A DNA stretch of 64,000 nt from Hormiphora californensis (lineage: Eukaryota > Animalia > Ctenophora): NCBI GenBank assembly GCA_020137815.1, contig CM035352.1, positions 6,448,001 through 6,512,000 of the forward strand, given 5' to 3'. The position numbers and the translations under genes were made by a program. The notes under the pieces were generated by a model that saw only the letters and a list, made by a program, of their open reading frames with translations, had not been told where the DNA came from and ran no database searches. This document shows, one piece after another, positions 1,111-58,331 of this stretch. Every line of letters starts with the position of its first letter. Position 1 is the stretch's first letter.

Positions 1111-1404
1111 AGGGATCCCTAAAAAAGTTCAGTATTTACACAGCGTTTACACAGTCTTTACACAGTTGTTACACCCAGAGCGGCGCGTGCTGCGTTTTGC
1201 AGCTTTTTCTAAGAAAATAATGGATTGTGTGCTGCACAATTGAGTAAATTGAGCGCTGCGGCGAAAAAAGTTTCCGAAAACGCTGCAAATCGAGTGCGAA
1301 TGACGCAGTCTTTACACCCAGAGCGGCGCGGGCGCTCTGGGTGTAACGACTGTGTAAAGACTGTGTAAACGCTGTGTAAATACTGAACTTTTTTAGGGAT
1401 CCCT
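1111..1404. mobile_element. MITE with ~70-bp TIRs (AGGGATCCCTAAAAAAGTTCAGTATTTACACAG...)
   Basis: Inverted terminal arms with internal TTTACACAG repeats; flanked by AG on both sides (possible 2-bp TSD). Confidence 0.85.
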
Positions 1405-1597
1405 AGTCAAAGAAAAGTTTTCAAATTCCATCCTTGTTTTTTTTCTTCATTTTTTCCCTGCCCGGGTGAATGCCGAAGGCATTCACCCGGATGCCTTTTT
1501 ACTTTGTAAAAAGGCATAGCAGGGTTAGAATTCGAAAACGACATTTTGGTATACTAACTAATCGGTAGAGGGACATTTTTTGGTCACACTTTCGGTG

Positions 1598-1637
1598 TTC
1601 AAACTTTTCAACACTACTTTAAACAAATTAATTTGAG
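1598..1637 (+). other. Spliced-leader exon sequence (TTCAAACTTTTCAACACTACTTTAAACAAATTAATTTGAG) fused to a 5' UTR
   Basis: Matches the ctenophore SL as recalled from the literature (not searched). Followed by CAG rather than an immediate GT donor, with no Sm site downstream, so it looks like a processed-mRNA 5' end rather than an SL RNA gene. Confidence 0.8.
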
Positions 1638-1692
1638 CAGGTAGATATGGTGATGTGACCGCCCCAAAGGGCAGAAAAGTGAAACGCTGATA

Positions 1693-4527
1693 ATGAAGCC
1701 GATGTACGAAGACAAACGATTGGATAATATTCTTCGCTTACCGTAGCGTCAACGTAGAAGACGCCCTGAGGGATATTGAAGACAGAGAGGCAGAGCTCAC
1801 GCACATCGAGCTCTCCCCTGCAGCCATAGAAGGTGCACTAAAGGAACTCAACCCACAGTCTGCAGCTCCTAAGGGCGACATCCCATCTATTATCCTACAT
1901 GAGGCCAGGGAGCAACTATGCTACCCACTGTGGATACTGTGGAATGCGTCCTTTGATCGTGGATTCATCCCCGATGAGCTGAAGAGGCAACAGATTGCCC
2001 CGATTTTCAAGAAGGGGGACAAGAGCCTTCCAGAGAACTACCGACCAGTAGCACTAACGAGCCACGTTACAAAAACATTCGAACGAGTGGTAAGGCAGCA
2101 ACTGGCTGATTTTGTGGAAAGGGCAGGGATCATCAATGAGGAGCAGCATGGATTCCGGTCAGGGAGGAGCTGTTTGACGCAACTACTCCACCACTACGAT
2201 GCAATCCTGGAGGATCTGAACAACGGCCACGAAGTAGATGTGGCCTATATAGATTTCGCGAAAGCGTTTGACAAAGTCGACATAAGCATCCTACTGGGCA
2301 AGCTGCGAAGATATGGTATCCGGGGTAAACTGTTAAACTGGATCGAGGCTTTCCTAACAGGGAGGTCGCAGACGGTAGTGCTGGAAGGGCATTGTTCCAG
2401 ACCAGAATACGTTATCAGTAGTGTCATCCAGGGCTCAGTGCTGGGTCCACTTCTTTTCATAATCTATGTAAGTGACCTGGCATCTTGTACGATGGGTGGT
2501 ACCTTAACGTTTGCCGACGACACCAAGAGCCGACAAGGTATTGAAGAAGCGAAGGACACGATCCTACTCCAAGGAGATCTCGACAGGATAGCGGATTGGT
2601 CAGAGAAAAACAACATGCTCTTACACAAGGACAAGTTCGAGATTCTAAATTACACGCTCAATAAAACAAAATTGTTGAGAGTCCTTCCATTCAACGTAGA
2701 ATACTACCGATACTACAATTCAGTGGGAGATGAAATTAGCCCTGCCGACTGTGTGAAAGATCTTGGCATCCACATGAAAAACGACGCATCGTGGACCACA
2801 CACATTGATGTCATCACCCGTGAAGCCAAAAGACTAGCTGGATGGGTTCTTGGAGTATTTAGAGATAGGTCTGCACCGACAATGGTTCTCCTACTGAAAT
2901 CACTCATCAGACCGAAGCTGGAATACTGCTCGCCCCTGTGGTCGCCATGCAAAGTGGGAGACATCGCAAAGATTGAGAATATCCAACGCTTTTTCACTCG
3001 AAGGATTGCCGATTGCAAAGGCAAAAACTACTGGGAACGATTGGAACATCTGCAGATCCTATCACTGCAACGAAGACGAGAACGATACATGATAATTCAC
3101 ATGTGGAAAATCTACCAGGGGTTAGCACCGAACAGCACAAACATATCGTTCTACGTTCACCAGCGGCACGGCCCAAAGGCAGTTGTCCCCCGTCTCATAA
3201 CCACGGCCCAAAAATCAGTGCAGACGCTACGAGATGCGTCTTTTGGGGTTAGGGCGGCCCAACTCTTCAATAGGATGCCGGACGACGTACGACTGGCACC
3301 ATCTCTCGACAGCCTGAAAGTTAGACTTGGAGACTTCCTCGCTACAGTCCCCGACTTTCCACCTGTCAGAGGCTACACAAGCCCCCGAGATAATTCCCTG
3401 GTAGCCCGTCTCACCGAGGGAAAGTAGGTTCATTCATTTAGGCCACCTCACTGTTTTGTTCACGCGGAAGTTCTGCTGAGTGCGTTGTATGACTTATGAA
3501 TTGTACATACTAAAACTTTTTTGTAATCTTGTAATCTTGTAATCTTGTAATCTTGTACGAGGGCGATAACCCCAAGATAAAACAACTGATCGAATCCGTT
3601 GATGACTTTGTTTTAGGAGTTGAGCGGCTGCATTGGGCTGATGTTCCCGAACAGATGAGTATCACACCCGAGAACGTTAGTCAGTGCTATAATTCTATCA
3701 AATATGCACCTGCGAGGGCGTTTACCCCTGATTGCTCAAACCCACCCGAAAATCACATGGGGACACTCTTCAAACATTGTCTTAAGGACCTAACTCCAAA
3801 TCAAGTTATTGATGTCACCACTCGTCTCTTTCTGTCCAGTGCTAAACTTGCGCAAGCAGCCATGAACAATTTGAACACAGTAATCACTGCAGAGAAACTC
3901 GAGAAGCAACTCTCTACGTGCAAAGAAGAGCTTGAACGAAATCGTATGTTGGTCATTGAACTGCAACAAACGGTCATAAATGTACAGAAGGAACAACTGA
4001 ACTCAGTAGAAACATCAGTGCAGAAGGTGAAAGCCTACTCGACAGTCCTGGCTCAAAACTTTGCTGCAGCCTCCCCTGTGGCGAAAAAGCTGCCAACTCC
4101 TCCTAAGCCACCAACTTCTAAGCCTCCTGCTACAGTAGTAGCCCAGGCGAACCGAGAGAAGAACTTGGTAATATTTGGGCTCCCAGAAACAACTGAGAAT
4201 GATGCTAGAGCCAATCTGGACGAGCTATTTGAAGAATTGAACGAGAAACCGAAAGTTGCCAACATGAAACGTATCGGTGAGAAAAACGAGGAACGCCCTA
4301 GGCCGCTCTTAGTATCTCTTGAGAATAGAGCAACCCTTTTGGCGTTGCTGAAGAAGGCACGGCAGCTAAAAGAATCCAAAAAACACTCTACCGTATATCT
4401 GTCGCCGGATCTTAACCCCTCCCAACTAAAGGAGCGAAAAGCTCTGCTAGCCACCTTGAAACGGGTTCGTACAGATGATCCAGGTGGCAATTATTACATC
4501 AGAAACAATGTGATCCAAGTCGGATAG
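1693..4527 (+). pseudogene. LINE ORF1p-like protein (coiled coil + RRM-like domain), 340 aa when reconstituted; disrupted by a LINE insertion
   Basis: 1693-1745 (MKPMYEDKRLDNILRLP) joins in frame to 3558-4527 (YEGDNPK...). Motifs NLVIFGLPE, RIG...RPRPLLV and VYLSPDL are typical of CR1/L2-group ORF1p. Confidence 0.82.
1746..3557 (+). mobile_element. 5'-truncated CR1-group LINE (reverse transcriptase, no endonuclease domain) with (TCTTGTAA)n tail
   Basis: Uninterrupted RT frame from ~1748 to 3427 with NYRPVALTS, QHGFR, DFAKAFDKV, QGSVLGP, FADD, RPKLEYCSPLWSP and a C-terminal PDxP..GY; 8-bp tandem tail; GTA duplicated at both junctions. Confidence 0.93.
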
Positions 4528-5512
4528 CGAACTGAACCTTATCGGACTGTTTCTATATGTTACCCCGCTTTAGGTAACTGCCGATGCTTTAAGCCTCTCG
4601 GCCTTGTAGGATTTATATACTTAACTATATAGATCTATAGTGTAAGAGCGGGAAGAGTCTGTTAATGACTCTAATATAAATTGTGATGTTCATTTTCATT
4701 TTCATTTGCGAGGGCAACGGTGTAGCAACTAGAGCCACGCGCACAGTGACGAGCTACTCCTTCATCAAACACCTCATTGACACCGTTTGATGGACGTGTG
4801 TGCGCGCGCCACTCAACAAAACATGAAATGCTCTGCCGCGTGTTTCGCGTGTTACATACACATTTTCATCTTGCGAGTCGAGTGTGAGATGTTAGATAAG
4901 TAGTTAAGTTGGAATGTCAAAAGCTGGTTAGCAAGTGTCATGTGATTGGGAGTTAGCTAACTCTAAGCTATGTGAGAAGTATACTGACAGCTAGATCGTA
5001 TGCATCTCACATTACATTATGACCAAGCCTTGATCCTGTTGGCAGTGACAATGTCACTGACATGTGAAACGGTAGGGCAGGGAAACAACTTAACTACTTA
5101 TCTAACCTCTCACAGTCACACTCGACTCGCAAGATGACAATGTGTATGTAACACGCGAAACACGCGGCAGCGCTATTCATGTTTTGTTGAGTGGCGCGCG
5201 CATACACGTCCATCAAACTGTGTCATTGTAAGTTTTGATAAAGGAGCACCTTGTTGTTGCGTGCGCGGCTCAGTTGCTACGCTGAGTACACCGGGTGGTA
5301 CCGGGTTGCCCCTCGCAACGAAAGTGTGACCAAAATGGTCCCTCTACCGATTAGTTAGTATACCAAAATGTCGTTTTCGAATTCTAACCCTGCTATGCCT
5401 TTTTACAAAGTAAAAAGGCATCCGGGTGGATGCCTTCGGCATCCACCCGGGCAGGGAAATAAATGATTATATTACATTACAATACAGTATTATCGTGTAA
5501 ACTGTTCAGGGT

Positions 5513-6481
5513 ATGGTATGTGTGCTTTCTCGGCTGGCTAACAGACAGTTATCATGGACTCAACCCATCCGCCATCTCGCCAGATCTGCCGGAAGGAAAA
5601 CTATCTCTCAAAATCCTGGACCATCACCATTTAAACAAACTGCTAAACAAGTTATATTTTGTTTTGGAATTATAATTCCAGGTGTCTACTATACTGCCAC
5701 CACCGAAGCTATAAACATGGCTGGTTATGTCATGTCGTTGGATATGTTTCCGAATCCTCCCATCATTACCTGGGATATATGGGATAAAATAAAGCCTAGG
5801 GTTGGGATGGGCGATCACGCTGGAAATCTGTTTTACACCCGCATCCTACAGTTTATGATGTTCAACTGTGCCGTGTTTGGGGTGCTACCCCTACTACTTA
5901 GGAATCGAGGGCACTTGTTTGTTCCCTACTTCACCTCCAGTCCCACCTCCTCTGCCATATCTCCCCTAACCTCAATGTTCGTGCACGGGAGCCTCCTTCA
6001 CCTTATAACTAACATGCTAGGACTATTCGCTCTAACGGTGGGATCGGCTTGGACACGGTCCACCAATGCAGAGGCTCCCTAGACGAAATGTCATATTCTC
6101 ATATAACATGTTTCCTTCTCTCAGCGGGCATGTGTACCGCGTTAGCGTGTTCTGTTCGCGGCCTCATTACCAAATCAGCCTCACCTGCTGTTGGCTTCTC
6201 CAACGCCCTCTACGCACTACTGTTCTATGAAGTATACATCCTAACCTGAATTTCGAGTGAGATTGATTTTCACCGATATAAGTATGTCAGCAGAGAAATT
6301 TTCATACTTTATTGTTGGTCTTGAGGCACTTTTCCTTCTCTTCTCGCGGTATCACCGTATGGACAACTTTGGGCATCTGGCAGGTGCCGCGTTCGGTTAT
6401 TGGTATGCAGTGAAGGGTAGTAAACTGTGGAAGGAGTTCAGGGATTTGCAGGTGCAATTACTTGCAGAAGAAGATGAGTGA
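5513..6481 (+). CDS. Mitochondrial rhomboid protease (PARL-like), intronless, with apparent frameshifts near 6045-6082 and 6241-6247
   Basis: Three abutting ORFs carry SMFVHGSLLHLITNMLGL, PAVGFSNA (catalytic Ser) and GHLAGAAFGYWY (catalytic His); Arg/Ser-rich presequence. Confidence 0.85.
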
Positions 6482-6634
6482 TAAATTGTGTATTTTCAAA
6501 ACTTCTGTTTGAATATTGTTCGTGATTTTTTTTAAACGATTTATAAGATCGGGAGTACCATGTTTTGTTTCACATTCAATTCCCTACTATCATTATTCAA
6601 TAATAACAGTAGTTTCTGCCACTTTTTAGAGGTC

Positions 6635-7036
6635 ATGTCCAAAGCAGCTGAGATCGTTACGTGCATTGAAACTGCAGAGACCTTCCACAAACTTTTCTAC
6701 GAGAAGATGGACAAATCTCGGCAGACGATCGGCAAACTATATCTCGACAATGCTACCCTGAATTGGAATGGAAATGCAGTAAAGGGGAAAGCAGAGATCA
6801 GCGGGTTCTTACAGAAGTTACCCATCTCCCATACCAATGTTTACTCGGTAGACGCCCAGCCTCTTATGGATTCTTCAATCATGATTGTAACCACTGGGAC
6901 AGTGAAATTCCAATCCACAAATTCTAACCGAGATCAGGACTTTTCCCAAACGTTCGTGCTCAAGAAGACAGACACTAAAACTATGAAGGTTTCTTTCGAT
7001 TGTTTCAGGCTTATAAACAAAATTGAGAGCGGCTGA
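6635..7036 (+). CDS. NXT1: NTF2-related export protein (p15)
   Basis: AETFHKLFYEKMDKSR..IGKLYLDNATLNWNGNAV..G..SVDAQP..FSQTFVL..DCFR; ATG follows a TTTTAG acceptor. Confidence 0.9.
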   Translation: MSKAAEIVTCIETAETFHKLFYEKMDKSRQTIGKLYLDNATLNWNGNAVKGKAEISGFLQKLPISHTNVYSVDAQPLMDSSIMIVTTGTVKFQSTNSNRDQDFSQTFVLKKTDTKTMKVSFDCFRLINKIESG

Positions 7037-7245
7037 TTTGTATTGTTGTGGCAGCTGTCTCTGCAGTGAATTTTGTGATTGTGCGTGAATTTATTTTATT
7101 TTTAACCACCCATTTTACTTTAGCTTTTTAATCTTCCAGTTACCACTCTCAAAGTATATACACATGTATGTGTCCCTATAGCCCCTGACTCTCAACCCCT
7201 CCCCTATCGACTATAACAACATCTTTCTCTCTACTAGCTACTAAA

Positions 7246-9797
7246 ATGCCTGGCACCTCCAAAGAAGAGCTGGACGACTTCCTGGCGAAGGCCGATAAAG
7301 CTCATGAACTGATAACCCTCCTCAGTTCAGAAGACGACAGTGTCATTAAGACCACTCAAGACAAGATTGATAACATTCTAAAGTCGGATTGGGAGGAGGA
7401 GGGTGGATGTGTAACGAAAGTGAACAAGTCTCAAATCAACAAAATGGGAGACACCCCTGCTGGTGCTGCTGCTGTATCTCCTGGACCCTCACCAGATTAC
7501 GGGGATGGAAGCCAGGAGGGGTTCATGAGGGTGATGGAGGAAGATGCTAATAGGAGGGCTGAGGAGAGAGCACGAAAGGAGGGGAAGAGTAAAGTGAGGA
7601 GGGAAAAGGGCAATGCCGCTTTCAAAGCAGGAGAGTACGCTAAAGCGATAGAGGAGTATGAGATTGCTATTCGTCTAACAGGGTGGCAGGTTTCCCTGTA
7701 CACTAACAAGGCTCAATGCCATACCCGTCTCAACCAACTTGATGAGGCTATAGCAGCGTGCGACAGGGCACTTTACATAGAGGACGATTTTGTGAAAGGT
7801 TATGTTCAGAAATCTATTGCTTTGATTGCTAAAGGAGCACTTTCCGACTCAGTGGCGTGTCTTGAAGAAGCGATGGAGAAATGTAAGAATACAGTTATCG
7901 TTGAGAAATATCTGGAGAAGGCAAGACATTTGCTGGATATTGAAACCCGTAATACAGAGGTGCTAAAGGGAGCTAGTGAGGATAAGATCAAAGAATTCAA
8001 ACACTTTGTATCCAAACTTGGTTCCGACAAGACATTTGAGAGCCTCATTTCAGCGGAGTTTCTCTTAAAAGCAGTGGAACACACACCGGAAGGGTGCGAG
8101 CTAATTCGAGCACTTGGTGGTATTTCAATTCTTATGAAACAGATCAACTCAGAACAGACTGAGGCGGCTCATTACACCTCACTTTTTACCCTGCTGAAAC
8201 ATCTTCTCGTTACCGACAAATTATCCTTTTTATCGTGGATATACTCCGAGTCAATGTTTGTCCCTCGAGACGATTCCTTTTCCTGCCAAGTCATTCTGCT
8301 CCTTCATAAAATAATCTTTGCTGATAACGAGTATTTCCCGACCACTTTCCTCGAAAATTGGACCTGCAAAGCGCTACTGAAATTATATCTATCCGGATTT
8401 AAAGATCCCGTTTCCAAGCCGATGTGTATGCTAATTTTGGGTCGAATGGTACAAAGCACCAAGTTCCTGGCTCGATTTCAAACGGATTTGGTGGCACAAA
8501 TAAAGAAAACTGGGGAGGAAATTTCTGGAAAACATGAGGACCTAAAAACTCTGATCAGTTCTCTCTCCGCTCTGTCAATGACTAAAACTTCACGGAAAAT
8601 ATTGGATTTGAAATTCTGGAGCAACTTCCTAGAAATTCTAGGTAAAAAAATATGAACTTCCTGTTTATTAATATACAAAACTTACCCCCCCCCCCAATCT
8701 CCATCAACCCCACTCTTGACACAACCCTCTCTTTCTAGATAACGCACCGGATGGGTCCATCGATGATTTATTATCAGCTGGAATGAACTTTGCCATTGGG
8801 AGTGAGAGTTTGAAGACAATTGGAGTGAATATAACATCCCGGCTCATTGAGTTGTGTGGAGAGAGAAAACGTGCAGCCCCTCTTCTAAATAGAGTGCTAG
8901 AGAAATGCCCTAATTCACAACTAGCTGAGGACAAGGTGGGAACAAATTACAAACAAACATACACAAATTTCCAAGTTACGCACCCTTCAAATTTATCTCT
9001 TTCCCCCGTATTCTTCTCTAATCATGGTTTTCGCAGGGTCAGTTTGCGGCGTTATTAAAGGTCATCAAACAGCGGCCTAGTGTTGAAGACGAGAACCTGA
9101 GTACTGCAATAAAACTTCTAGCTCGGACAACTGCTGAATCAGTCCAGGTAGATATTAGGAGAAACAAACACTTCCCTCTAATTGACTTCCCTAAAATCTG
9201 TTGGAATCGGGGACCTTGCCAACAATTTACTTACAAATCTAAATCCCAGGCAAGAAAGTGGGTTGTAAAGTATAAGATCTTGGAGGCGTTGCTCCAGATT
9301 TTAGATGAAAACATTGTGGTAAAGAGTACTCCGAAATCCGCTACCGCCGTTATTTCCAATTCTGCACTGGTGTGTGGTCACTGCTTTTTAGATGGTAAGA
9401 AAATGTAGATAGAGATAGAGATGGAGGGAGACAGAGTTTAAAAATATAGAAACAGATCCCTCGATTTGCGATCAGTTCGATCACCCCAGTTTTACTAGTT
9501 ATTCTGATTTATTCTCTTCGATCATTGTATGTATGAAATTACAAAGAAAGGCTAGATCTTCTAACTATCGTTATTCGTTTCATTTTCTGACACTAACATC
9601 CTATTTCAGAGGCGCTATGTAAGAAACAAGGACCAGAAATAGTGGACCTCTTCCTAAAACACGCTAAAGCTGAGAAGGGGCTGGTGATTCAACAAAATGC
9701 AGCCATTGCCCTCGCTCGGTTAGCGAAGTCTAGCCCCATCCTACTAGAGAGATTGCGGCAGACAAGAGGTTTAGAAATACTTCATTCACGATATTGA
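7246..9797 (+). CDS. TTC12: Tetratricopeptide repeat protein 12 (TPR + ARM), ~5 exons
   Basis: N-terminal LDDFLAKADK; TPRs (REKGNAAFKAGEY, LYTNKAQC); last exon QNAAIALARLAK..LERLRQTRGLEILHS; GT-AG introns. Confidence 0.85.
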
Positions 9798-12927: not shown

Positions 12928-17135
<4,208 letters not shown>

Positions 17136-18101
17136 ATCTTTTAGAAATCGAGAATTTTGTATCACTATCAAGATAAATTGTTTTGCACTTCGAATTTTCC
17201 TTGTTGAGTCTTCCCCCTTACTCAACAAAATTTTCCAATTAGTTTTGAAGATGTTTGGGTTATCGCCTACTTTTAGTAACCACTTGTAATGATAGTTTAA
17301 AAATCCGGATATAAACAGAAAATAATACAATAATTATTGTTATAAGAATGTACAGGAATTTGGCAGCGAAGCTACCAACTTCGTCGGAGATTATGGTTGA
17401 CCGCGGTCTTTGACGGAACGCGCGAAGTCGCACAACTTTCGTCGGAGAGTTTTTGCCGCGCATTGACTCCAACCTCACGCCGCGCCGAGCGGTGTAAAAA
17501 TTCTGGGTTTTTTAATAATTTTGCACACTCGCTCCATTTTCTAAAAACACTAAAATTCGAACGCTGCCCCAGACCACGTTCAGAGACAAAGAAAGGCTGG
17601 TTCCTATGGGTCCAGGGCCCAATTTTCGGGGGGAAAGTGGGTAAATGACACCATTTTTGATCAAAAACTGTCGAAAATTAAAAATGGACCCGGAATTTTG
17701 GTCGAGAATGGACGCCGGGTACCGGCCCGGCCCTGACCACGTTCCATCAGCTAACCCAAGATTTGAAGCTTATGACGAAATTCACGGTGTGTCCAAATTG
17801 CTCTGCGATTACTTATCATGCCTGAGACCCCCGCTTTTCAAAGACCAGTAAAATAGCTCTAATAATACTCCATCAGTAAACGACGGTATGTTTCGTGGTA
17901 GGGTGTTGTAGCTGCTAGTATAACAGTCGCCTCTCACACACTAGATCCCGTGTTCGATCCTGGTATAGTGCATGTCGTCTAGTCCACTAAACTATGATTG
18001 GTAGGGGCTGTCTTGAGAGATCAGAGAACCGAAAGTGACACGAGTGCATACACTACAACACAATGCCGAAACATTAACTTTTTATAAGTTTGTTAACTTT
18101 A

Positions 18102-18490
18102 GGCCAGCGTTAAAATCTGGGTGTTTCGTGAGTGCTGACAAACGGTTTTTTAGGGTTAGGGCTAAAGTGGGGTTAGGGTTAGGGTTGGGGTTAGGCCTTG
18201 ACATTTCCTACCAGGCAAACTTTGAATTAGCCAAAACGGTTGAGTGGATTGGCGGTTAAAGTCGGATTTTTTGAAACTGCCACCCCCCTTTTCGTGCGTG
18301 GAATGTTTTTGTGTGTCACATCACATGTTAACGTGTGGAGTGTGTGTCAAAACTGATAAATTTCACATGTGCGGTCATTTAGGGGTGACAGTTTCAAAAA
18401 ATCCGACTTTAGAGCCATTTTAGTGAATCAACTTTTTTGGCAGCGCACACCTGTAAACAGGTCACGAAACACCCAGATCCTAACGGTGCC
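18102..18490 (+). mobile_element. Short-TIR element with internal degenerate (TTAGGG)n
   Basis: Homologous to 58083-58331 and 56543-56788 (reverse); ends CGTTAAAATCTGGGTG / CACCCAGAT..AACG. Confidence 0.8.
18257..18411. mobile_element. TA-flanked MITE (TAAAGTC termini) nested in the TTAGGG element
   Basis: ~30-bp TIRs; the empty site GGTTAGAGCC is seen in the 58241 copy. Confidence 0.85.
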
Positions 18491-18825
18491 CTCAACTTTA
18501 TTGGAGTGTCAACCATAGAATTATGAGTAGATGCACAATTTTGGTATTTATTTCCTTATTGTTGTCGTATAGTAATATTACTGATACTAGATTTATATTT
18601 ATGTAATAATAATCATGCAGTCTTTCATGTTTATAGTAGCTTTGAATTTCATTTTGCACACACATTTCTTCACAAAATTAAGGGCCCACAATAAATTAAT
18701 TTATCTGTTTATTAAATCTCGTCTGCACAGGACACATCCCTCGCTCTCTATAGTTATCACTTATCTCTCTCTCTTCCTTTATAAACTTGTAAAATGCTAC
18801 CCTCGCATTTCTCATTTTCAGGTTA

Positions 18826-28136: not shown

Positions 28137-38669
<10,533 letters not shown>

Positions 38670-39594
38670 GATCACCTGGGATCCACCCCATCATGACCCT
38701 CCACGTGCATCTTGCAAACCCAGCATTTGTGTGTGTGACTCAATAATCAATAATAAAGAATCCCCCGGGGCACAAGTTGTGTTTATGTTCTAGAACTGAG
38801 AAGGTGGCCCTCTCTGTCTGAATTGGTATCAAGATGGTGAAGACTTCCATTTTGAGGGGACTCTATTGAGTGTTTAGCAGGGGAGTTTTGATACATGTCA
38901 ACAACCACACTTTTAATTTATTTTTCCGTGCCCTTTGCAAGATTGGTTGTCGTGAACTTTGTCCTACAACCGGGTGATAAAAGTACTTCTTCCTTGGGCA
39001 CAACCGTGCACCAATAGTGGACAGTGGTGTATTGTATGTATACAAGAACTGCGTGGTACATACTAATACGTAGACCGTCTGACGTCACTTCTCTACGTCA
39101 GAGGATCGAGCTCTACAAAACGTCACTAGCCCCTCTCTCATATATATCTCGTCTACCCCCTTCACCGCGTTGTATGATGTCCGACTATCTGTCTATAATA
39201 TTCTGGTGAATAGCCCCCGTTATTGTACTATTTGTGACGTCACATTATCGTCTAGGTATTAGCGATCCCTTCCTCTTTTTAAAGGAGGACCGTAGTTCCA
39301 CTATTAAACTCTTGTTCCCCTTTACTTTCTACTTCTACTTGCCTTATTGCTGTCTGGCGCCGCAGACTCCATCTGAGCGCACTGTCGAGAATCAAATAGG
39401 GTTCTGGCGCCGCCAGACTTGTCTCATATGAGACCCTCCTCTCCGCACCGGGCCTTCGGCCCGGTGCGGCTACGCGAGGCCGCGCGGTGTACAGTCAGTG
39501 TAGGACAACGCCAGACAGCCTTGTTCGACCCTCTCTCTATCCGCACCCCGAGGATGTTTAGAACTGAAAACATATCAACCAACTTCGCACCTTA

Positions 39595-40238
39595 TACAGG
39601 GTGTTCATTTTGGATCTTTACAAGCGTTGGGCTTCACCCAGAAAAAAGTTGACAAGATTAGGTCATGAAACCTCATACTTGGACTATTCTATACGCTCAT
39701 TCAAGGTTCCCGGTGTTTTCGGAGCTCTAGCACCCCGGGAAGTGTGTTTTTGGCATCAAAACTACCAGAAGGAATTTTTTGCTGGTGCTGAGACTTTGCT
39801 AAAATGTTTTTTGGGTATTTTCTATGTTAATCCCAAAGTTTCATGATGATTGAATTATATGTTTTTCGGACTCAAAATTTCGAAAAAAGTGGCTGGAAAG
39901 GCTCGAAAACGGCTCAAAAACGGCAAAAATTGAGTCTTTCCAGCCACTTTTTTCGAAATTTTGACATCGAAAAACACATTCAATCATCATAAAACTTTGG
40001 GATTGACATAGAAAATACCCAAAAAACATTTTAGCAAAGTCTCAGCACCAGCAAAAAATTCCTTCTGGTAGTGTTGATGCCAAAAACACACTTCCCGGGG
40101 TGCTAGAGCTCCGAAAACACCGGGAACCTTGAATGAGCGTATAGAATAGTCCAAGTATGAGGTTTCATGACCTAATCTTGTCAACTTTTTTCTGGGTGAA
40201 GCCCAACGCTTGTAAAGATCCAAAATGAACACCGTGTA
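39595..40238. mobile_element. Tc1/mariner-type palindromic MITE (~640 bp)
   Basis: TACAGGGTG...CACCGTGTA termini; near-perfect ~300-bp arms. Confidence 0.9.
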
Positions 40239-41355
40239 TGCCATTGCTTTACTTTTTTGGTAATTCAGGGGCCATTTCTTATTAGTGAGACTGAGATGGG
40301 AGCACAGAGAGAGTAGAAAGAGATAGGTAGAGATTTGGGGGCGAGAGAGGAATGGAGAGAGTAGAGAGACAGATAGAGAGAAATAGAGAGAGAGGGGGAG
40401 GGAGAGAGATTTGGGGTGAGGGAGTGAGAGAGAGGGAGGCAGAGAGTGTGAGTGAAATTGAAAAGAAAGGATGGCAGGTAACATTGACAAGTCAATATTA
40501 CACCTTACACCGCCATTCTAATAGTCCTTTGAATTGACTTTGTACCTATATTCGCCTTGTTTCTTTGGTGAAACGGAACGGTGAAGGAAGAGAGACACAG
40601 ACAGAGACAGAGACAGAGAGAGAGAGAGAGAGACACAGACACAGAGACAGAGACAGAGACAGACAGAGAGATACAGAGAAAGTGAAGAATGTGAACTCGT
40701 AAATTGGGCCTCAAAGTCTTTGCTTCTCTCTCTCTGTACATCCTCAATCTCAAAAAGACTTTTATCTGCATCACATCCAGTAGACAGCTGTCCCCTCTCT
40801 CTATAAAGTGCTTGTTCTTCTTGGGGCTGCCATTCGATCAGATCTACGTGGTGGCTTCTTGACGTGACCATCGTCACTATACAATATATCTCTTTCATTA
40901 GTATATATCTCTTCATTTTCTTTATATCTCCTCCCACTCGCGTCGATCTATCTCTCTACAGCTGTCGTTTCTCTCTGTGTCTGTCCCCATATCTCTCTCT
41001 CCTCCCCAATCTCGCTGCTTACACCCATCATCATGACGTGAGTAGATGCGATATTGAGAGAGAGAGGACAAGAAAATGAACCTCTCTCCGTGTAAAGGCA
41101 TATCCTTTATTAAGAGAGCTGTTGCTGTTCACCCTACCCCCGCCACTACTACTACTTTTGTCAACAATACTTCGATGGATAGATGTCCTCCTCCCCAACC
41201 GGTGGGTGCAACACTTTGTTGGGTTTAAACTCGTGTATCCACTATTTAATGATCTTTTTTTGGGTTTAAACTCGTGCATTCAGTGATCTTTATTTTGCTT
41301 TCAATTTATGTTGAATTTTCTCTTTTTCCACCCGTTTTCGTTTTTTCAGGAGATC

Positions 41356-48100: not shown

Positions 48101-51100
48101 GTCAGTTGTGGACGTGAGCGTGGCTAGACATAACAATCGACTGCAACTAATAACAACCGACTAACCATTAACAATACGTCATATATCCATATCATATCAT
48201 TTCCCAAAAAAAAATAATTATATAATAATTATAAAAATGAACACACTTTAATAAATTTAACAAATGCTTATAGTCCATAGAATAATACACACATAAAACT
48301 CTGTCTCATGCATCTTCAGGCATCTGGGGTTTCACAGACTGCCCACTTCGACCGAGGCCACTAGAAATTTTTTGTTAGAAACCATGATATTAATTAGAAT
48401 CATAATATAAGTATTTTAATTACCAGAAAATGATTGCTACACATAAGCTCCGTTTATTCATATTAAATAAACATAGTAGGCTGCTTGTAGAATCTTTAAT
48501 GATACACTGCGAAGTGTACAATTATGTGCAGGGGAGTGCTTCTAGAAATTTCGGTGGCACCCTTCCAATAGTCCTTGGAAAATCGGACTCTACACATCAT
48601 GTGGATATTATTAGTAGGGTCGGTTGTGGGAAGTTGGGTCTGGAATTGTAAATTTGACTTGCTGATATGATTAGGGACTCTATAAAAAGTCCAAAGTACC
48701 ATCCCACAGGTCTCTACCACCCCCGGTTCACTAATTAGCCGTAATTATGTGATTTATGACGTTATCGCCAATTAGCACTAATAATACCAGTTCCTGGTCA
48801 CTTAGAGCTTAGATTTTGATACCAGCTGATAGAGGATCACTAGATTAGTGGGCATTCAAAATTTTAGGTCGATCAGAGTTATGGTCGAGGAGTTATAACC
48901 GTTTTTCCGTTTGGCTGGCGGTTGGCTGGCACCACGTGGGATTACGGGTTTAGGTCGTCGTGGGAGGTCCTCATTGGTCGCGTTCGATCGGGCTCGATGA
49001 GGTGATCAAAACCTAGTGGGGCCAGACCTTGGCCCCACCCCGTTCTTGGGTTATTAGGCTTTTTCGGTTTCCCGCCAAAATATTTTCCCGCCAAAACCGA
49101 AAAAGCCTAATAACCCAAGAATGGGGTGGGGCCAAGGTCTGGCCCCACTAGGTTTTGATCACCTCATCGAGCCCGATCGAACGCGACCAATGACGACCTC
49201 CCACGACGACCTAAACCCGTAATCCCACGTGGTGCCAGCCAACCGCCAGCCAAACGGAAAAACGGTTATAACTCCTCGACCATAACTCTGATCGACCTAA
49301 AATTTTGAATGCCCACTAATCTAGTGATCCTCTATCAGCTGGTATCAAAATCTAAGCTCTAAGTGACCAGGAACTGGTATTATTAGTGCTAATTGGCGAT
49401 AACGTCATAAATCACATAATTACGGCTAATTAGTGAACCGGGGGTGGTAGAGACCTGTGGGATGGTACTTTGGACTTTTTATAGAGTCCCTAATCATATC
49501 AGCAAGTCAAATTTACAATTCCAGACCCAACTTCCCACAACCGACCCTACTATATCAGATCAACTGAGCTTCACTCGGCTGCAGCTGTTGATTTTTTTTT
49601 TTTTTTTTTTTTGCAACTGATTGTGGTGTCTGCTTTACTATACTAAAGTATTCAAGCATTCCAATGAACACCAAGTTAGCTAATGGTCCCATTCCGAAAA
49701 GGGCGCTAACGGCAATTAGTCAATTAAAGGGTTAGTAAACTTTCTCATATAGAGATGGTTAGGATTAGAAAATTACGGAAAAAGTACTATTAGTATTAAA
49801 CATTTACAATTAAAGAGTCAGCCATTAAAAACAACTCGGAAGCATAATTCATATTAGAAGATCAAATAGAAACTTCTTGAATTTTTTAGTAAACTAGTAT
49901 TTATCCAGTATGTCATCATTATTATTATTATTATATATATTATTATGTTTCAAGTGAGGTGTCACATTATATTAAGGTGATGTGTTAATGTGATGTGGCA
50001 CAAAATCGTCCGATAATTGTGGTGTCAGGTGGGCTGTGTTAGTCAAAACAAAAACGTCAAAGTACGTTAGTGGGACGTAAGCCCACACCCTGAGAATAAC
50101 GTAACTGGTACCTCGAACCGTACCATTAAACTTCATTTATAAATGTTGTAAGTAACATGAGAAAACATAACTTAAAATCCATGTACAGAGGGTAACAAAA
50201 ATTCTGAAAAAGATATCAGAAAAGACCCGTGAGAAAGAAAGTTACTGTTAAATATCTTTAAAAGATATATGTAAAAGGTAGTTAAAACATACCGTGTTTG
50301 AGAAATAGAAGGTAGAAAGAGCTAATTTCTATTCGTCATAGACAATCCAAAGCTCTCTATTAATGTGCAGTATCAGTACTGGTAGAGATCTCGCTTTCTG
50401 ATTTGGTCCTTAACCTTTCTGATGTCCTTGTAGGCTCGCTTTCTGCCTTCTTCTCTTTTGCAGCAGCCTTGCTGCTTTTCTCTGTCTTCGAAAATCATTG
50501 TCAACATCAGGGGTGATCACATCTTCAATTTACCAGGGGTGACGTCTTGAATACCAGGGGTAGAATCAGCAATATCATGGGTAGAATCAGGAGTGCATGT
50601 TTCCAAAACTTCAAAGTTGTGACAGTCGTATCCACTGTATAGAAACACCACCAGATACACTACCAAGATCATTGCAGCTTGTAGATCCTGTATGCTAGTA
50701 GGGGGTTTGCTTGAAGAACGGGTTAGAATAATAATAATAATATTTATTTTTTATCTAGAATACTAGAAGAATTATAAGTAATGGCGACAAGGGGGTTAGT
50801 AATGCTAATAGCCAGAGTGGTATTTGTCCCTGGAACGTATATTACGTCTATTACGAGGTGATCTTCGGTAGCTATAACTAGAATTAGAAGGTATTTCAGA
50901 ATCATGTTCAAACTTTACCTCTGTTCTCAGAACACTAGTATTTTGAGTTGAAGAATCAGTACCGTTGGAAGAAGAGTTGTTACCATTACTGGATCCCATC
51001 ATCTGGTCCACTCTCTCCAATCGTTTCGCCTGCTTGATAGCAGTAGAAAAAGTCTCTATATCGGGGAGCTCATTAAGTTTTCGTCTAAGAACAAGGTCTC

Positions 51101-56265: not shown

Positions 56266-56542
56266 TTTCAATCATTTGCCTAGAATAATCAGGTGAAAAT
56301 TTAATTAGGGGTTACTGCACTAACCACTAGCCGCTAGTCACTGCGTATTCAATGTCGCTTGACTGATCACTGATGACGCCTGCCGCAGGAAAACGTTAAA
56401 ATCTGGGTGCCTTCCATTGCTAACATTTCATCGATTTTGGCGTTCGAGACGGGTTAGGGTTTTATTTGGGGTTATCGGTTAGGGCTATCGATTCTCTATC
56501 AGATACCGTTTAGTTTACTCAAATCGGCCATGTGGTTGCGGG

Positions 56543-56788
56543 GCGCCGTTACGATCTGGGTGTTTGAAGGCCTGTTTACAAGTGCACGCTGCCAAAAAAG
56601 TTGATTCACTAAAATGGCTCTAACCGCCAAACCACTCAACCGTTTTGGCTGATTCGAAGTTTATCTGGTAGGGAATGTCAAGGCCTAACCCCAACCCAAA
56701 CCCCAACCCTAACCCTAACCCTACTTTAGCCCTAACCCTAAAAAACCGTTTGTCAGCACTCCCAAAACCCAGATTTTAACGCTGGCCG
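56543..56788 (-). mobile_element. TTAGGG-containing short-TIR element (copy 2)
   Basis: Reverse complement of the 18102 and 58083 copies; extra fragments at ~56394-56490 and 56845-56900. Confidence 0.82.
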
Positions 56789-57948: not shown

Positions 57949-58082
57949 GGCAGCGTAAATTAAACTTTTATCGCGCGTACCATTAAAAGCTGGTCCACGC
58001 GGCGTTAAAATTAAAAAATATGCCAAGCGATTCTATTCGTGAATCGTGAACTGTTTTTTGTTGTTTTTCTTCGGCAAAAATT

Positions 58083-58331
58083 CGGCCAGCGTTAAAATCT
58101 GGGTGTTCCGTGAGTGCTGGGTGCTGACAAACGGTTTTCAGGGTTAGGGCTAAGGTAGGGTTAGGGTTTGGGTTGGGTTTAGGCTTTGACATTTCCTATC
58201 AGATAAACTTTGAATTAGCCAAAACGGTTGAGTGGTTTGGCGGTTAGAGCCATTTTAGTGAATCAACTTTTTTGGCAGCACGCACCTGTAAACAGGCCAC
58301 CAAACACGGAACACCCAGATCGTAACGGCGC
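58083..58331 (+). mobile_element. TTAGGG-containing short-TIR element (copy 3)
   Basis: Uninterrupted homolog of the 18102 copy. Confidence 0.82.

Follow-up and report, generated by a model that had tools for sequence, protein, structure and literature searches.

This report concerns a retroposon headed by the host spliced leader (SL) in a 64,000-nucleotide (nt) stretch of the genome of the ctenophore Hormiphora californensis (assembly GCA_020137815.1, contig CM035352.1, positions 6,448,001 to 6,512,000; the whole stretch is called the window, and positions are numbered within it). Three nested parts lie at about 1400-5500: a host foldback contains an element that encodes the first open reading frame (ORF1) protein, ORF1p, of a long interspersed nuclear element (LINE), and this element in turn contains a second LINE (Table 1). 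The right arm of the foldback (5086-5466) is whole and the left arm is split after 1594. As a first-pass annotation of this sequence had proposed, the uninterrupted opposite arm fixes the boundaries of the insert: 5316-5466 reads through the insertion site (95% over 152 nt), leaving an insert of 3111 nt at 1595-4705. Contigs that join 1594 to 4706 and skip the insert occur in the public runs X1 (five contigs) and X2 (three); they may be other copies of the very abundant foldback rather than this locus. Comparison with the opposite arm and the junction contigs gave no target duplication at the insert ends. Subtraction of the nested, 5'-truncated LINE leaves a unit of 1299 nt, and what the annotation had observed at this locus is, as a whole, confirmed.

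Table 1. Features of the nested locus, in window coordinates (UTR, untranslated region; RRM, RNA recognition motif; RT, reverse transcriptase; dN/dS, ratio of nonsynonymous to synonymous substitution rates; "." denotes no strand).
Feature	Position	Strand	Evidence
Host foldback, left arm, first part (insertion target)	1447..1594	.	95% inverted match to 5316-5466; summed depth very high in X1 and X2
Three extra bases in the gap between target and leader	1595..1597	+	Unlike both the target and the opening bases of the published leader
Spliced-leader exon (leader A), last 40 of 44 nt; CAG follows, no GT donor	1598..1637	+	Identical to the published Hormiphora leader
5' UTR, 55 nt, starting with close AG dinucleotides (AG at 1636, 1639, 1643)	1638..1692	+	Agrees with the L001 UTR at 46/58; variant joints occur at these AGs
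ORF1, first 17 codons; the nested LINE breaks in and supplies a stop at 1744-1746	1693..1743	+	Same N-terminus in P0001-P0003
Nested 5'-truncated LINE of 1812 nt (3-nt ambiguity at its ends), with an RT-bearing frame as far as 3427, a short 3' UTR and a (TTGTAATC)n tail at 3521-3557	1743..3557	+	RVT_1, E 8e-24
ORF1, the other 323 codons with the stop: coiled coil, RRM and C-terminal domain (type II, predicted L1-ORF1p-like fold)	3556..4527	+	AlphaFold, Foldseek, dN/dS
3' UTR, 161 nt, with blocks conserved in L003	4528..4688	+	Score 75 against a shuffle mean of 17.5; 0/300 shuffles as high
Tandem tail, TTCATT x3, last T common to the target	4689..4705	+	X7 contig runs 4375-4704 at family depth
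Host foldback, remainder: left arm continued (4722-4911), uninterrupted right arm (5086-5280 and 5316-5466)	4706..5466	.	

Once the nested LINE is removed, ORF1 comprises 340 codons (17 at 1693-1743 and 323 at 3556-4524), the length first suggested for it, and the protein P0001 is a natural uninterrupted version (337 amino acids from the second Met, 99% identical to that of the window). Sequence profiles were of little help in classifying it: with Pfam, neither the window protein (which had one DUF7165 match, below the cut-off) nor 25 homologs could be assigned to an ORF1 family, and a search of the PDB with the ORF1 alignment returned seven weak, unrelated matches and no ORF1p. The AlphaFold model (mean predicted local distance difference test score, pLDDT, 67; about 80 in the C-terminal part) has a long helix at residues 112-171 followed by an RRM-type alpha/beta domain, and its 11 best Foldseek matches are all human L1 ORF1p, including 2yko, 2w7a and 2ldy (best E 6.8e-6). 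As modeled, the window protein has the coiled coil, single RRM and C-terminal domain of a type II LINE ORF1p, a type found in L1, CR1, L2 and R1 elements (PMC4120745, in the part accessible to us). It has 30 close homologs and 1466 representatives at E up to 0.001, and the named relatives of the window's proteins come from Pleurobrachia, Mnemiopsis and Bolinopsis; a metagenome scan with ORF1 confirmed 3 of 113 stretches (L001-L003), and none of the 167 stretches matched by the ORF1 alignment in viral contigs was confirmed. Pairwise dN/dS is 0.16-0.22 at synonymous divergences (dS) of 0.5-1.9 in the six pairs formed by the window, L001, L002 and L003; ORF1 is under purifying selection.

The unit ends soon after ORF1. 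The longest stop-free forward frame in 4528-5500 has 63 codons, so that ORF2 is absent downstream, and there is no poly(A); both had been foreseen in the first reading of the sequence, as had a 3' UTR of about 160 nt (161 nt are found). The tail was slightly misread at that stage: instead of (TTCAT)n it consists of three TTCATT hexamers, 4689-4706 when the T shared with the target is counted. In run X7, the contig that runs from 1612 across the uninterrupted ORF1 joint and the one that starts in ORF1, crosses the 3' UTR and reaches the tail (4375-4704) have like depths, 6.2 and 5.3. L002 and L003, too, close with a tandem tail and without ORF2, at 221 and 206 nt from the stop; L001 ends 2 nt after its stop and is uninformative on this point. 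ORF1-bearing contigs measure at most 2 kb in 24/26 and 44/48 cases of two overlapping sets, some members of which may be RNA assemblies. Fusion of ORF1 to ORF2 was considered and rejected: among the best 150 of the 1466 representatives only P0034 exceeds 400 amino acids, and it is joined to a PSF3 domain. No copy seen continues from ORF1 into ORF2. The ORF1-only state is a family trait, and the data support the unit as a repeated ORF1-only LINE derivative.

Repeat status was judged from contigs of public runs matched to the window, as a stand-in for a BLASTN search of the genome; depth in these contigs is not copy number and is read to the order of magnitude only. The uninterrupted DNA joint from 1742 to 3555 is present in three of the four runs compared (X1, X2 and X7; depths 1230, 391 and 6.2). 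The nested LINE, which inactivates this copy of ORF1, has its 5' junction in X1 only among X1, X2 and X19, and the depth of this locus-specific junction (239) serves as a rough yardstick for one locus. On that scale the uninterrupted form in X1 amounts to about five loci and the leader-UTR contig 1630-1706 (depth 1767) to about seven, a figure to which sister subfamilies with a common UTR add. One variant site is carried by up to 14 different contigs, several subfamilies (37-64% protein identity) coexist, and ends of the retroposition type are seen both as tandem tails and as copies cut inside the UTR at 1655 and 1677. The element is a dispersed repeated family with such ends. That the unit would be multi-copy had been anticipated, and a one-off processed pseudogene of a single host gene was rejected in view of the many subfamilies and copies, the LINE ORF1 protein and the tandem tails without poly(A). 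A search with the leader pattern gave no match in the viral_contigs or genome_contigs collections.

The 40 nt at 1598-1637 agree at every position with the 3'-terminal 40 nt of the leader published for H. californensis, which has 44 nt (PMC8527503); this bears out their original identification as the ctenophore SL. In the portions of that paper accessible to us the leader is reported on 56% of Iso-Seq reads, and its place at mRNA 5' ends is taken from this published figure; the authors also count 718 genomic copies and point out that dispersed leader copies may produce artefactual shared first exons in annotation. The 40-mer occurs once in the window, and it stands at the head of unrelated contigs in X8, an RNA run, and of many different DNA contigs in X2. 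An SL RNA gene was rejected as its source at this locus, as the leader is followed by CAG and an mRNA-like UTR instead of a GT donor, and a GT found 3 nt later is absent in L001; Rfam gave only one weak, unrelated match in 1400-5500. The 55-nt UTR is of the length first described. A single X7 contig spans the leader interior (from 1612), the UTR and the uninterrupted joint and runs into ORF1, and the UTR-holding contigs of X1 begin within leader A (depths 1172 and 1767). In this element family the leader regularly forms the 5' end.

This 5' end does not follow the descent of the element. L001, whose protein is 63% identical to that of the window, starts with the last 26 nt of leader A, unchanged at 26/26 positions, while its UTR matches at 46/58 and its ORF has diverged to a dS of about 1.5. 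L002 begins with nine other bases followed by a 42-nt head, leader B, that resembles leader A at both ends; from this likeness and from its position, leader B is a putative second spliced leader. A frame of 12-14 residues encoded by leader B lies just ahead of ORF1 in 4 of 337 proteins (P0024, P0033, P0307 and P0063, the last a Pleurobrachia bachei gene model), and P0008 has the last three residues of this frame before ORF1. In the ORF1 tree (23 rows) the clade of the window (support 100/100) includes leader A (the window itself) and leader B (P0063), and its sister clade (100/99) likewise includes leader A (L001) and leader B (P0307, P0008); the starred branches force at least two leader changes. 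The run contigs agree: leader B precedes a window-type UTR in X19, and an L001-type UTR occurs in X1 with leader A (depth 411) and with leader B (depth 524). Leader type is independent of element lineage, each of two sister subfamilies separated by a dS of about 1.5 having both A and B.

All joints seen between leader and element use the leader's 3' terminus, and on the element side they fall at the AG cluster or a few nt from it; SL-RNA intron sequence is never included. The CAG after the leader is kept in most copies. A leader-B copy in X1, on an L001-type UTR, is without the first CAG (depth 524), and X2 (depth 220) and X19 (depth 71) have copies that lack 3 nt at 1636, which is what splicing to the next AG would give. 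Minor variants have 2 nt inserted after 1634 (depth 88 in X1, 150 in X2), 1-2 nt missing at 1641-1642 or 1 nt inserted after 1646. Of 21 loose-end rows for X1, X2 and X19, a set from which a filter had dropped some contigs, the 17 that were displayed have no non-leader sequence just before 1638. The non-leader loose ends shown are two strings that we take to be adapter and the two copies cut inside the UTR; further loose ends belong to sister families diverging at 1674-1676 or 1695, to a repeat-like end at 1717 and to the expected continuation at 1745.

The leader most likely derives from trans-splicing, and its exchange, together with the AG-stepped joints, fits repeated trans-splicing before retroposition. 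One could instead suppose a single capture of a leader, which has since been inherited as a fixed head serving as an internal promoter or translation signal, the differences between A and B reflecting recombination or template switching onto leader RNA. We regard this as very improbable. The compared part of the leader is unchanged (26/26) while synonymous sites approach saturation, and the joints are exact at the leader 3' end and the AG cluster, whereas template switching would be expected to scatter them. Precedents for the components of this idea do exist, a promoter role having been proposed for relic leaders in dinoflagellates (PMC5585692, in the passages available) and repeated addition of a small nuclear RNA (snRNA) piece at the 5' end by template switching for the SINEU elements (PMC4494074, likewise).

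We consider it probable that an ordinary LINE of the CR1 group, acting in trans, supplies the reverse transcriptase that turns the leader-spliced RNA of the ORF1-only element into DNA. In such a scheme a copy would be transcribed from upstream, most likely by read-through or from a nearby host promoter. The host spliceosome would then attach any leader RNA available, using an AG where the element begins: in most cases the one with which the old genomic leader closes, at times the following AG, 3 nt further. Doing so would renew the 5' end, the cap and the short UTR; the joints and the two leader types are seen, and the step would presumably act on transcripts of genomic copies. ORF1p would be made next and would likely package its own RNA; ORF1, found to be under purifying selection, would then be conserved because of this packaging. 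Finally, the ORF2 protein (ORF2p) of a LINE would prime at the tandem tail and copy the RNA to its 5' end; the expected product, with a tail, no target duplication and a leader left in the genome, is what is seen, and the enzyme would be the presumed CR1-group one.

LINE-type elements lose an upstream promoter when they are copied, and the known solutions are internal promoters or co-transcription with the target followed by ribozyme cleavage. It is tempting to go one step further and view the element as a promoterless, self-renewing retroposon, a proposal that may well hold but for which we stop a little short of declaring a preference. The terminal AG of the leader would be the element's own trans-splice acceptor in every full-length copy; host read-through transcripts would be cut there, and a fresh capped leader would regenerate the exact 5' end. 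If so, host trans-splicing, by defining and renewing the 5' end, would be a further solution to promoter loss, and the family would have lived in this manner long enough for synonymous sites to come near saturation. Retroposon heads, not SL RNA genes, would then make up much of the 718 leader copies in Hormiphora and the 491 in Mnemiopsis. The earlier suggestion that such an element scatters SL copies around the genome is sound inasmuch as the family contributes to them, and the family offers a concrete explanation for hundreds of dispersed ctenophore leader copies. In addition, the leader tags full-length insertions, which makes it possible to date and count them.

Several points weigh against copying of a re-spliced element RNA. 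The transcription start, the cap and an unspliced precursor cannot be read from contigs. Among the RNA runs, X11 has nothing over 1622-1765, which is no proof of absence, and X8 covers only parts of ORF1 and may hold DNA; in X24, presumed to be an RNA run, no ORF1 word occurs. The ORF1 tree has only two leader-A rows, with P0063 filling 16% of the columns, and its shuffle test (500/500 as low) is uninformative with so few. The status of leader B is judged from likeness and position, and a text search of the literature gave no mention of it (the Hormiphora paper was matched, for leader A), although Derelle et al. 2010 or the supplement of PMC8527503 may list it. The 3' UTRs of the window element and L002 are unrelated (160/300 shuffles as high), and therefore no single signal for recognition by a partner is shown.

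The nature of the acceptor adds to these points. GAG is a weak 3' acceptor and CAG a stronger one; the leader ends in GAG next to CAG, yet most copies keep the CAG, which fits a source locus with its own outron as well. An account in terms of master loci, which we think unlikely, holds that each subfamily has one or a few promoter-bearing sources with an ordinary outron, possibly domesticated ORF1 genes, whose trans-spliced mRNA is often retroposed, the leader-headed copies being dead ends. Retention of the CAG is expected if it is the true acceptor in a source outron, and the weakness of GAG speaks for the same account, which also explains the two leaders, the joints at neighboring AGs and the purifying selection equally well. 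Leader-bearing retrotransposon loci in flatworms have, in outline, been explained in this way (PMC12582326 and PMC5832876, accessible passages). However, no source with its own outron appears in the 17 loose-end rows mentioned above, and several subfamilies coexist with tandem tails and not poly(A). The joint with 2 extra nt could moreover be a relic of an old leader end, although slippage explains it too.

As to the helper, the nested LINE is the only one whose 3' end was compared with that of the element, and it does not match: its 3' UTR is no closer than shuffles to those of the element, L002 and L003 (77, 90 and 212 of 300 as high), and it was rejected as partner on the first of these values. 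Full-length endonuclease-RT relatives of the nested LINE are up to 69% identical to it. Eight of them that were aligned lie on contigs of 3.5-4.8 kb with 0.7-1.9 kb beyond the ORF, which would leave room for ORF1 in most. In L008 an ORF1 homolog directly precedes an endonuclease-RT ORF2 (profile of 152 homologs, E 2.6e-19; hhalign 96%), and C-terminal pieces of ORF1 lie ahead of ORF2 in L005, L007, L017 and L021. Since an ORF1 homolog precedes ORF2 in the two-ORF LINE L008, a helper of the ordinary autonomous LINE type is the simpler assumption; the tandem tail and the lack of a target duplication merely hint at a CR1-group parentage of the element. An obligate pair of ORF1-only and ORF2-only elements that complement each other through common 3' ends appears to us scarcely credible in the light of these arrangements and of the shuffle results, even though the tails of L002 and of the nested LINE are similar short TTGTA-containing repeats and no ORF1 is visible for the nested LINE, itself 5'-truncated. 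The first-pass annotation had envisaged a half-LINE whose RNA is SL trans-spliced before reverse transcription, within a bipartite LINE system. The repeated ORF1-only unit and the probable origin of the leader in trans-splicing uphold the first part of this view; the second is unsupported, no ORF2-only partner with a shared 3' end having been found.

A scan of genome_contigs with ORF2 retained 32 of 294 stretches as loci, all of them distant LINEs inside prokaryote records, and 6 of the 32 have an ORF1 hit. These 32 contigs (L004-L035), which encode eukaryote-type LINE ORF2 relatives in prokaryote genome records, point to contamination by host DNA. No convincing case of a leader peptide on an ORF2 protein was found among the 337 fetched proteins, matches of 4-6 residues being due to chance. 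In the window itself, a second LINE RT fragment lies at 14875-15552 on the minus strand and is 42% identical to P0178, a full-length relative of the nested LINE.

Poly(A) tails and target-site duplications are hallmarks of L1 elements. Non-autonomous LINEs that retain only ORF1 are a named kind, with HAL1 (L1 clade), HeT-A (Jockey) and Ag-Sponge (CR1) as examples in the available text of PMC5786205 and PMC5753468, and the element, which encodes a LINE ORF1p and has no ORF2, belongs to it. As far as these descriptions go, it resembles them in being repeated, in encoding ORF1p only, with ORF1 intact, and in needing ORF2p in trans. Unlike them it has at its head a spliced leader of the host, which varies independently of the element, and no parent LINE with a common 3' end was found for it, the nested LINE being the one compared. 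HAL1 derives from L1, whereas the element ends in a tandem tail and lacks both poly(A) and a target duplication; HAL1 proper was therefore rejected, the hexamer tail and missing duplication standing against an L1-type poly(A) and target-site duplication.

NeSL and SLACS/CZAR/CRE are autonomous elements without long terminal repeats (non-LTR elements) that insert into SL RNA gene arrays. They too adjoin a spliced-leader exon, but here the leader comes with the element at unrelated sites (a foldback in the present case), and no remainder of an SL gene flanks it. Leaders on retroelement copies have been noted in other animals, and the following comparisons hold for the passages of the cited papers that were accessible. 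In flatworms, leader-bearing retrotransposon loci are on record, 597 discarded loci in one study (PMC12582326) and six elements in another (PMC5832876), with integration of trans-spliced transcripts as the suggested cause; in Hydra the leader is present on about 30% of the Iso-Seq reads of transposable elements (PMC12220107). The flatworm loci share with ours a genomic leader exon fused to a retroelement. The flatworm and Hydra cases are side observations, mostly of partial leaders on LTR or LINE copies, and define no family, whereas in Hormiphora an old ORF1-only family regularly begins with the leader, which is of two types, and its joints are AG-stepped.

Dinoflagellate retrogenes provide a further parallel, trans-spliced RNA being written back into DNA with relic leaders, and an AG inside the old leader has been named as a possible acceptor for the next round (PMC5585692, PMC12014239). 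In the accessible descriptions host genes are carried and the relics accumulate in tandem; our case has a LINE ORF1 element as cargo, and with its AG at the very end the old leader would be replaced exactly, leaving no relic. SINEU, short interspersed elements (SINEs) with U1 or U2 snRNA heads ascribed to template switching (PMC4494074, available part), resemble our element as non-autonomous retroposons with a recurrently added head derived from a small RNA and no recognizable promoter; they are non-coding, whereas the present element encodes ORF1p and has a head that stops at the leader 3' end. ORF1-only LINEs and leader-bearing retrotransposon copies are thus each in print, and we found no description of the combination: the literature searched held none of a leader-headed ORF1-only family or of leader-headed retroposons in ctenophores, and subscription journals, Repbase and supplements, which lay outside the search, may hold one.

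The run contigs contain other joints with the leader. A copy of the nested-LINE family in X1 is joined at its position 3082 to a leader via five letters that complete the 44-nt leader (depth 353), and a copy of the ORF1 element is joined at 4486 to a leader start in X1 and X2; these are further leader-headed insertions, at least one of them with a full-length leader. Over 1637-1647, mixed sequences follow the leader in 17 and 20 contigs of X2 (agreement 0.42 and 0.55), and mixed flanks stand ahead of it in 18 and 13. One of the continuations past the leader is common to X2 and X7 and may belong to another leader-headed family. Other elements share the leader and about the first 38 nt of the UTR and diverge at 1674-1676, among them a 2170-nt contig of X19 that is longer than the ORF1-only unit.

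Two foldback elements, similar to miniature inverted-repeat transposable elements, adjoin each other at 1111-1404 and 1447-5466, and the summed depth of the larger one in X1 and X2 reaches hundreds of thousands. Just downstream, at 5501-8655, closely spaced plus-strand host genes encode a rhomboid-like protein (a weak match, below cut-off), an NTF2-domain protein and a TPR protein; the ATG of the NTF2 gene is preceded, at a distance of a few bases, by a T-rich AG resembling a trans-splice acceptor, and the group is possibly an operon. Elsewhere in the window, a 4.3-kb palindrome at 29255-33547 has arms filled with a 32-nt tandem repeat, and further palindromes lie at 39594-40239 and 48612-49552. 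Related repeats with degenerate (TTAGGG)n arrays are found at 18099-18491, 56541-56788 and 58081-58331, two of them inverted and about 1.3 kb apart.

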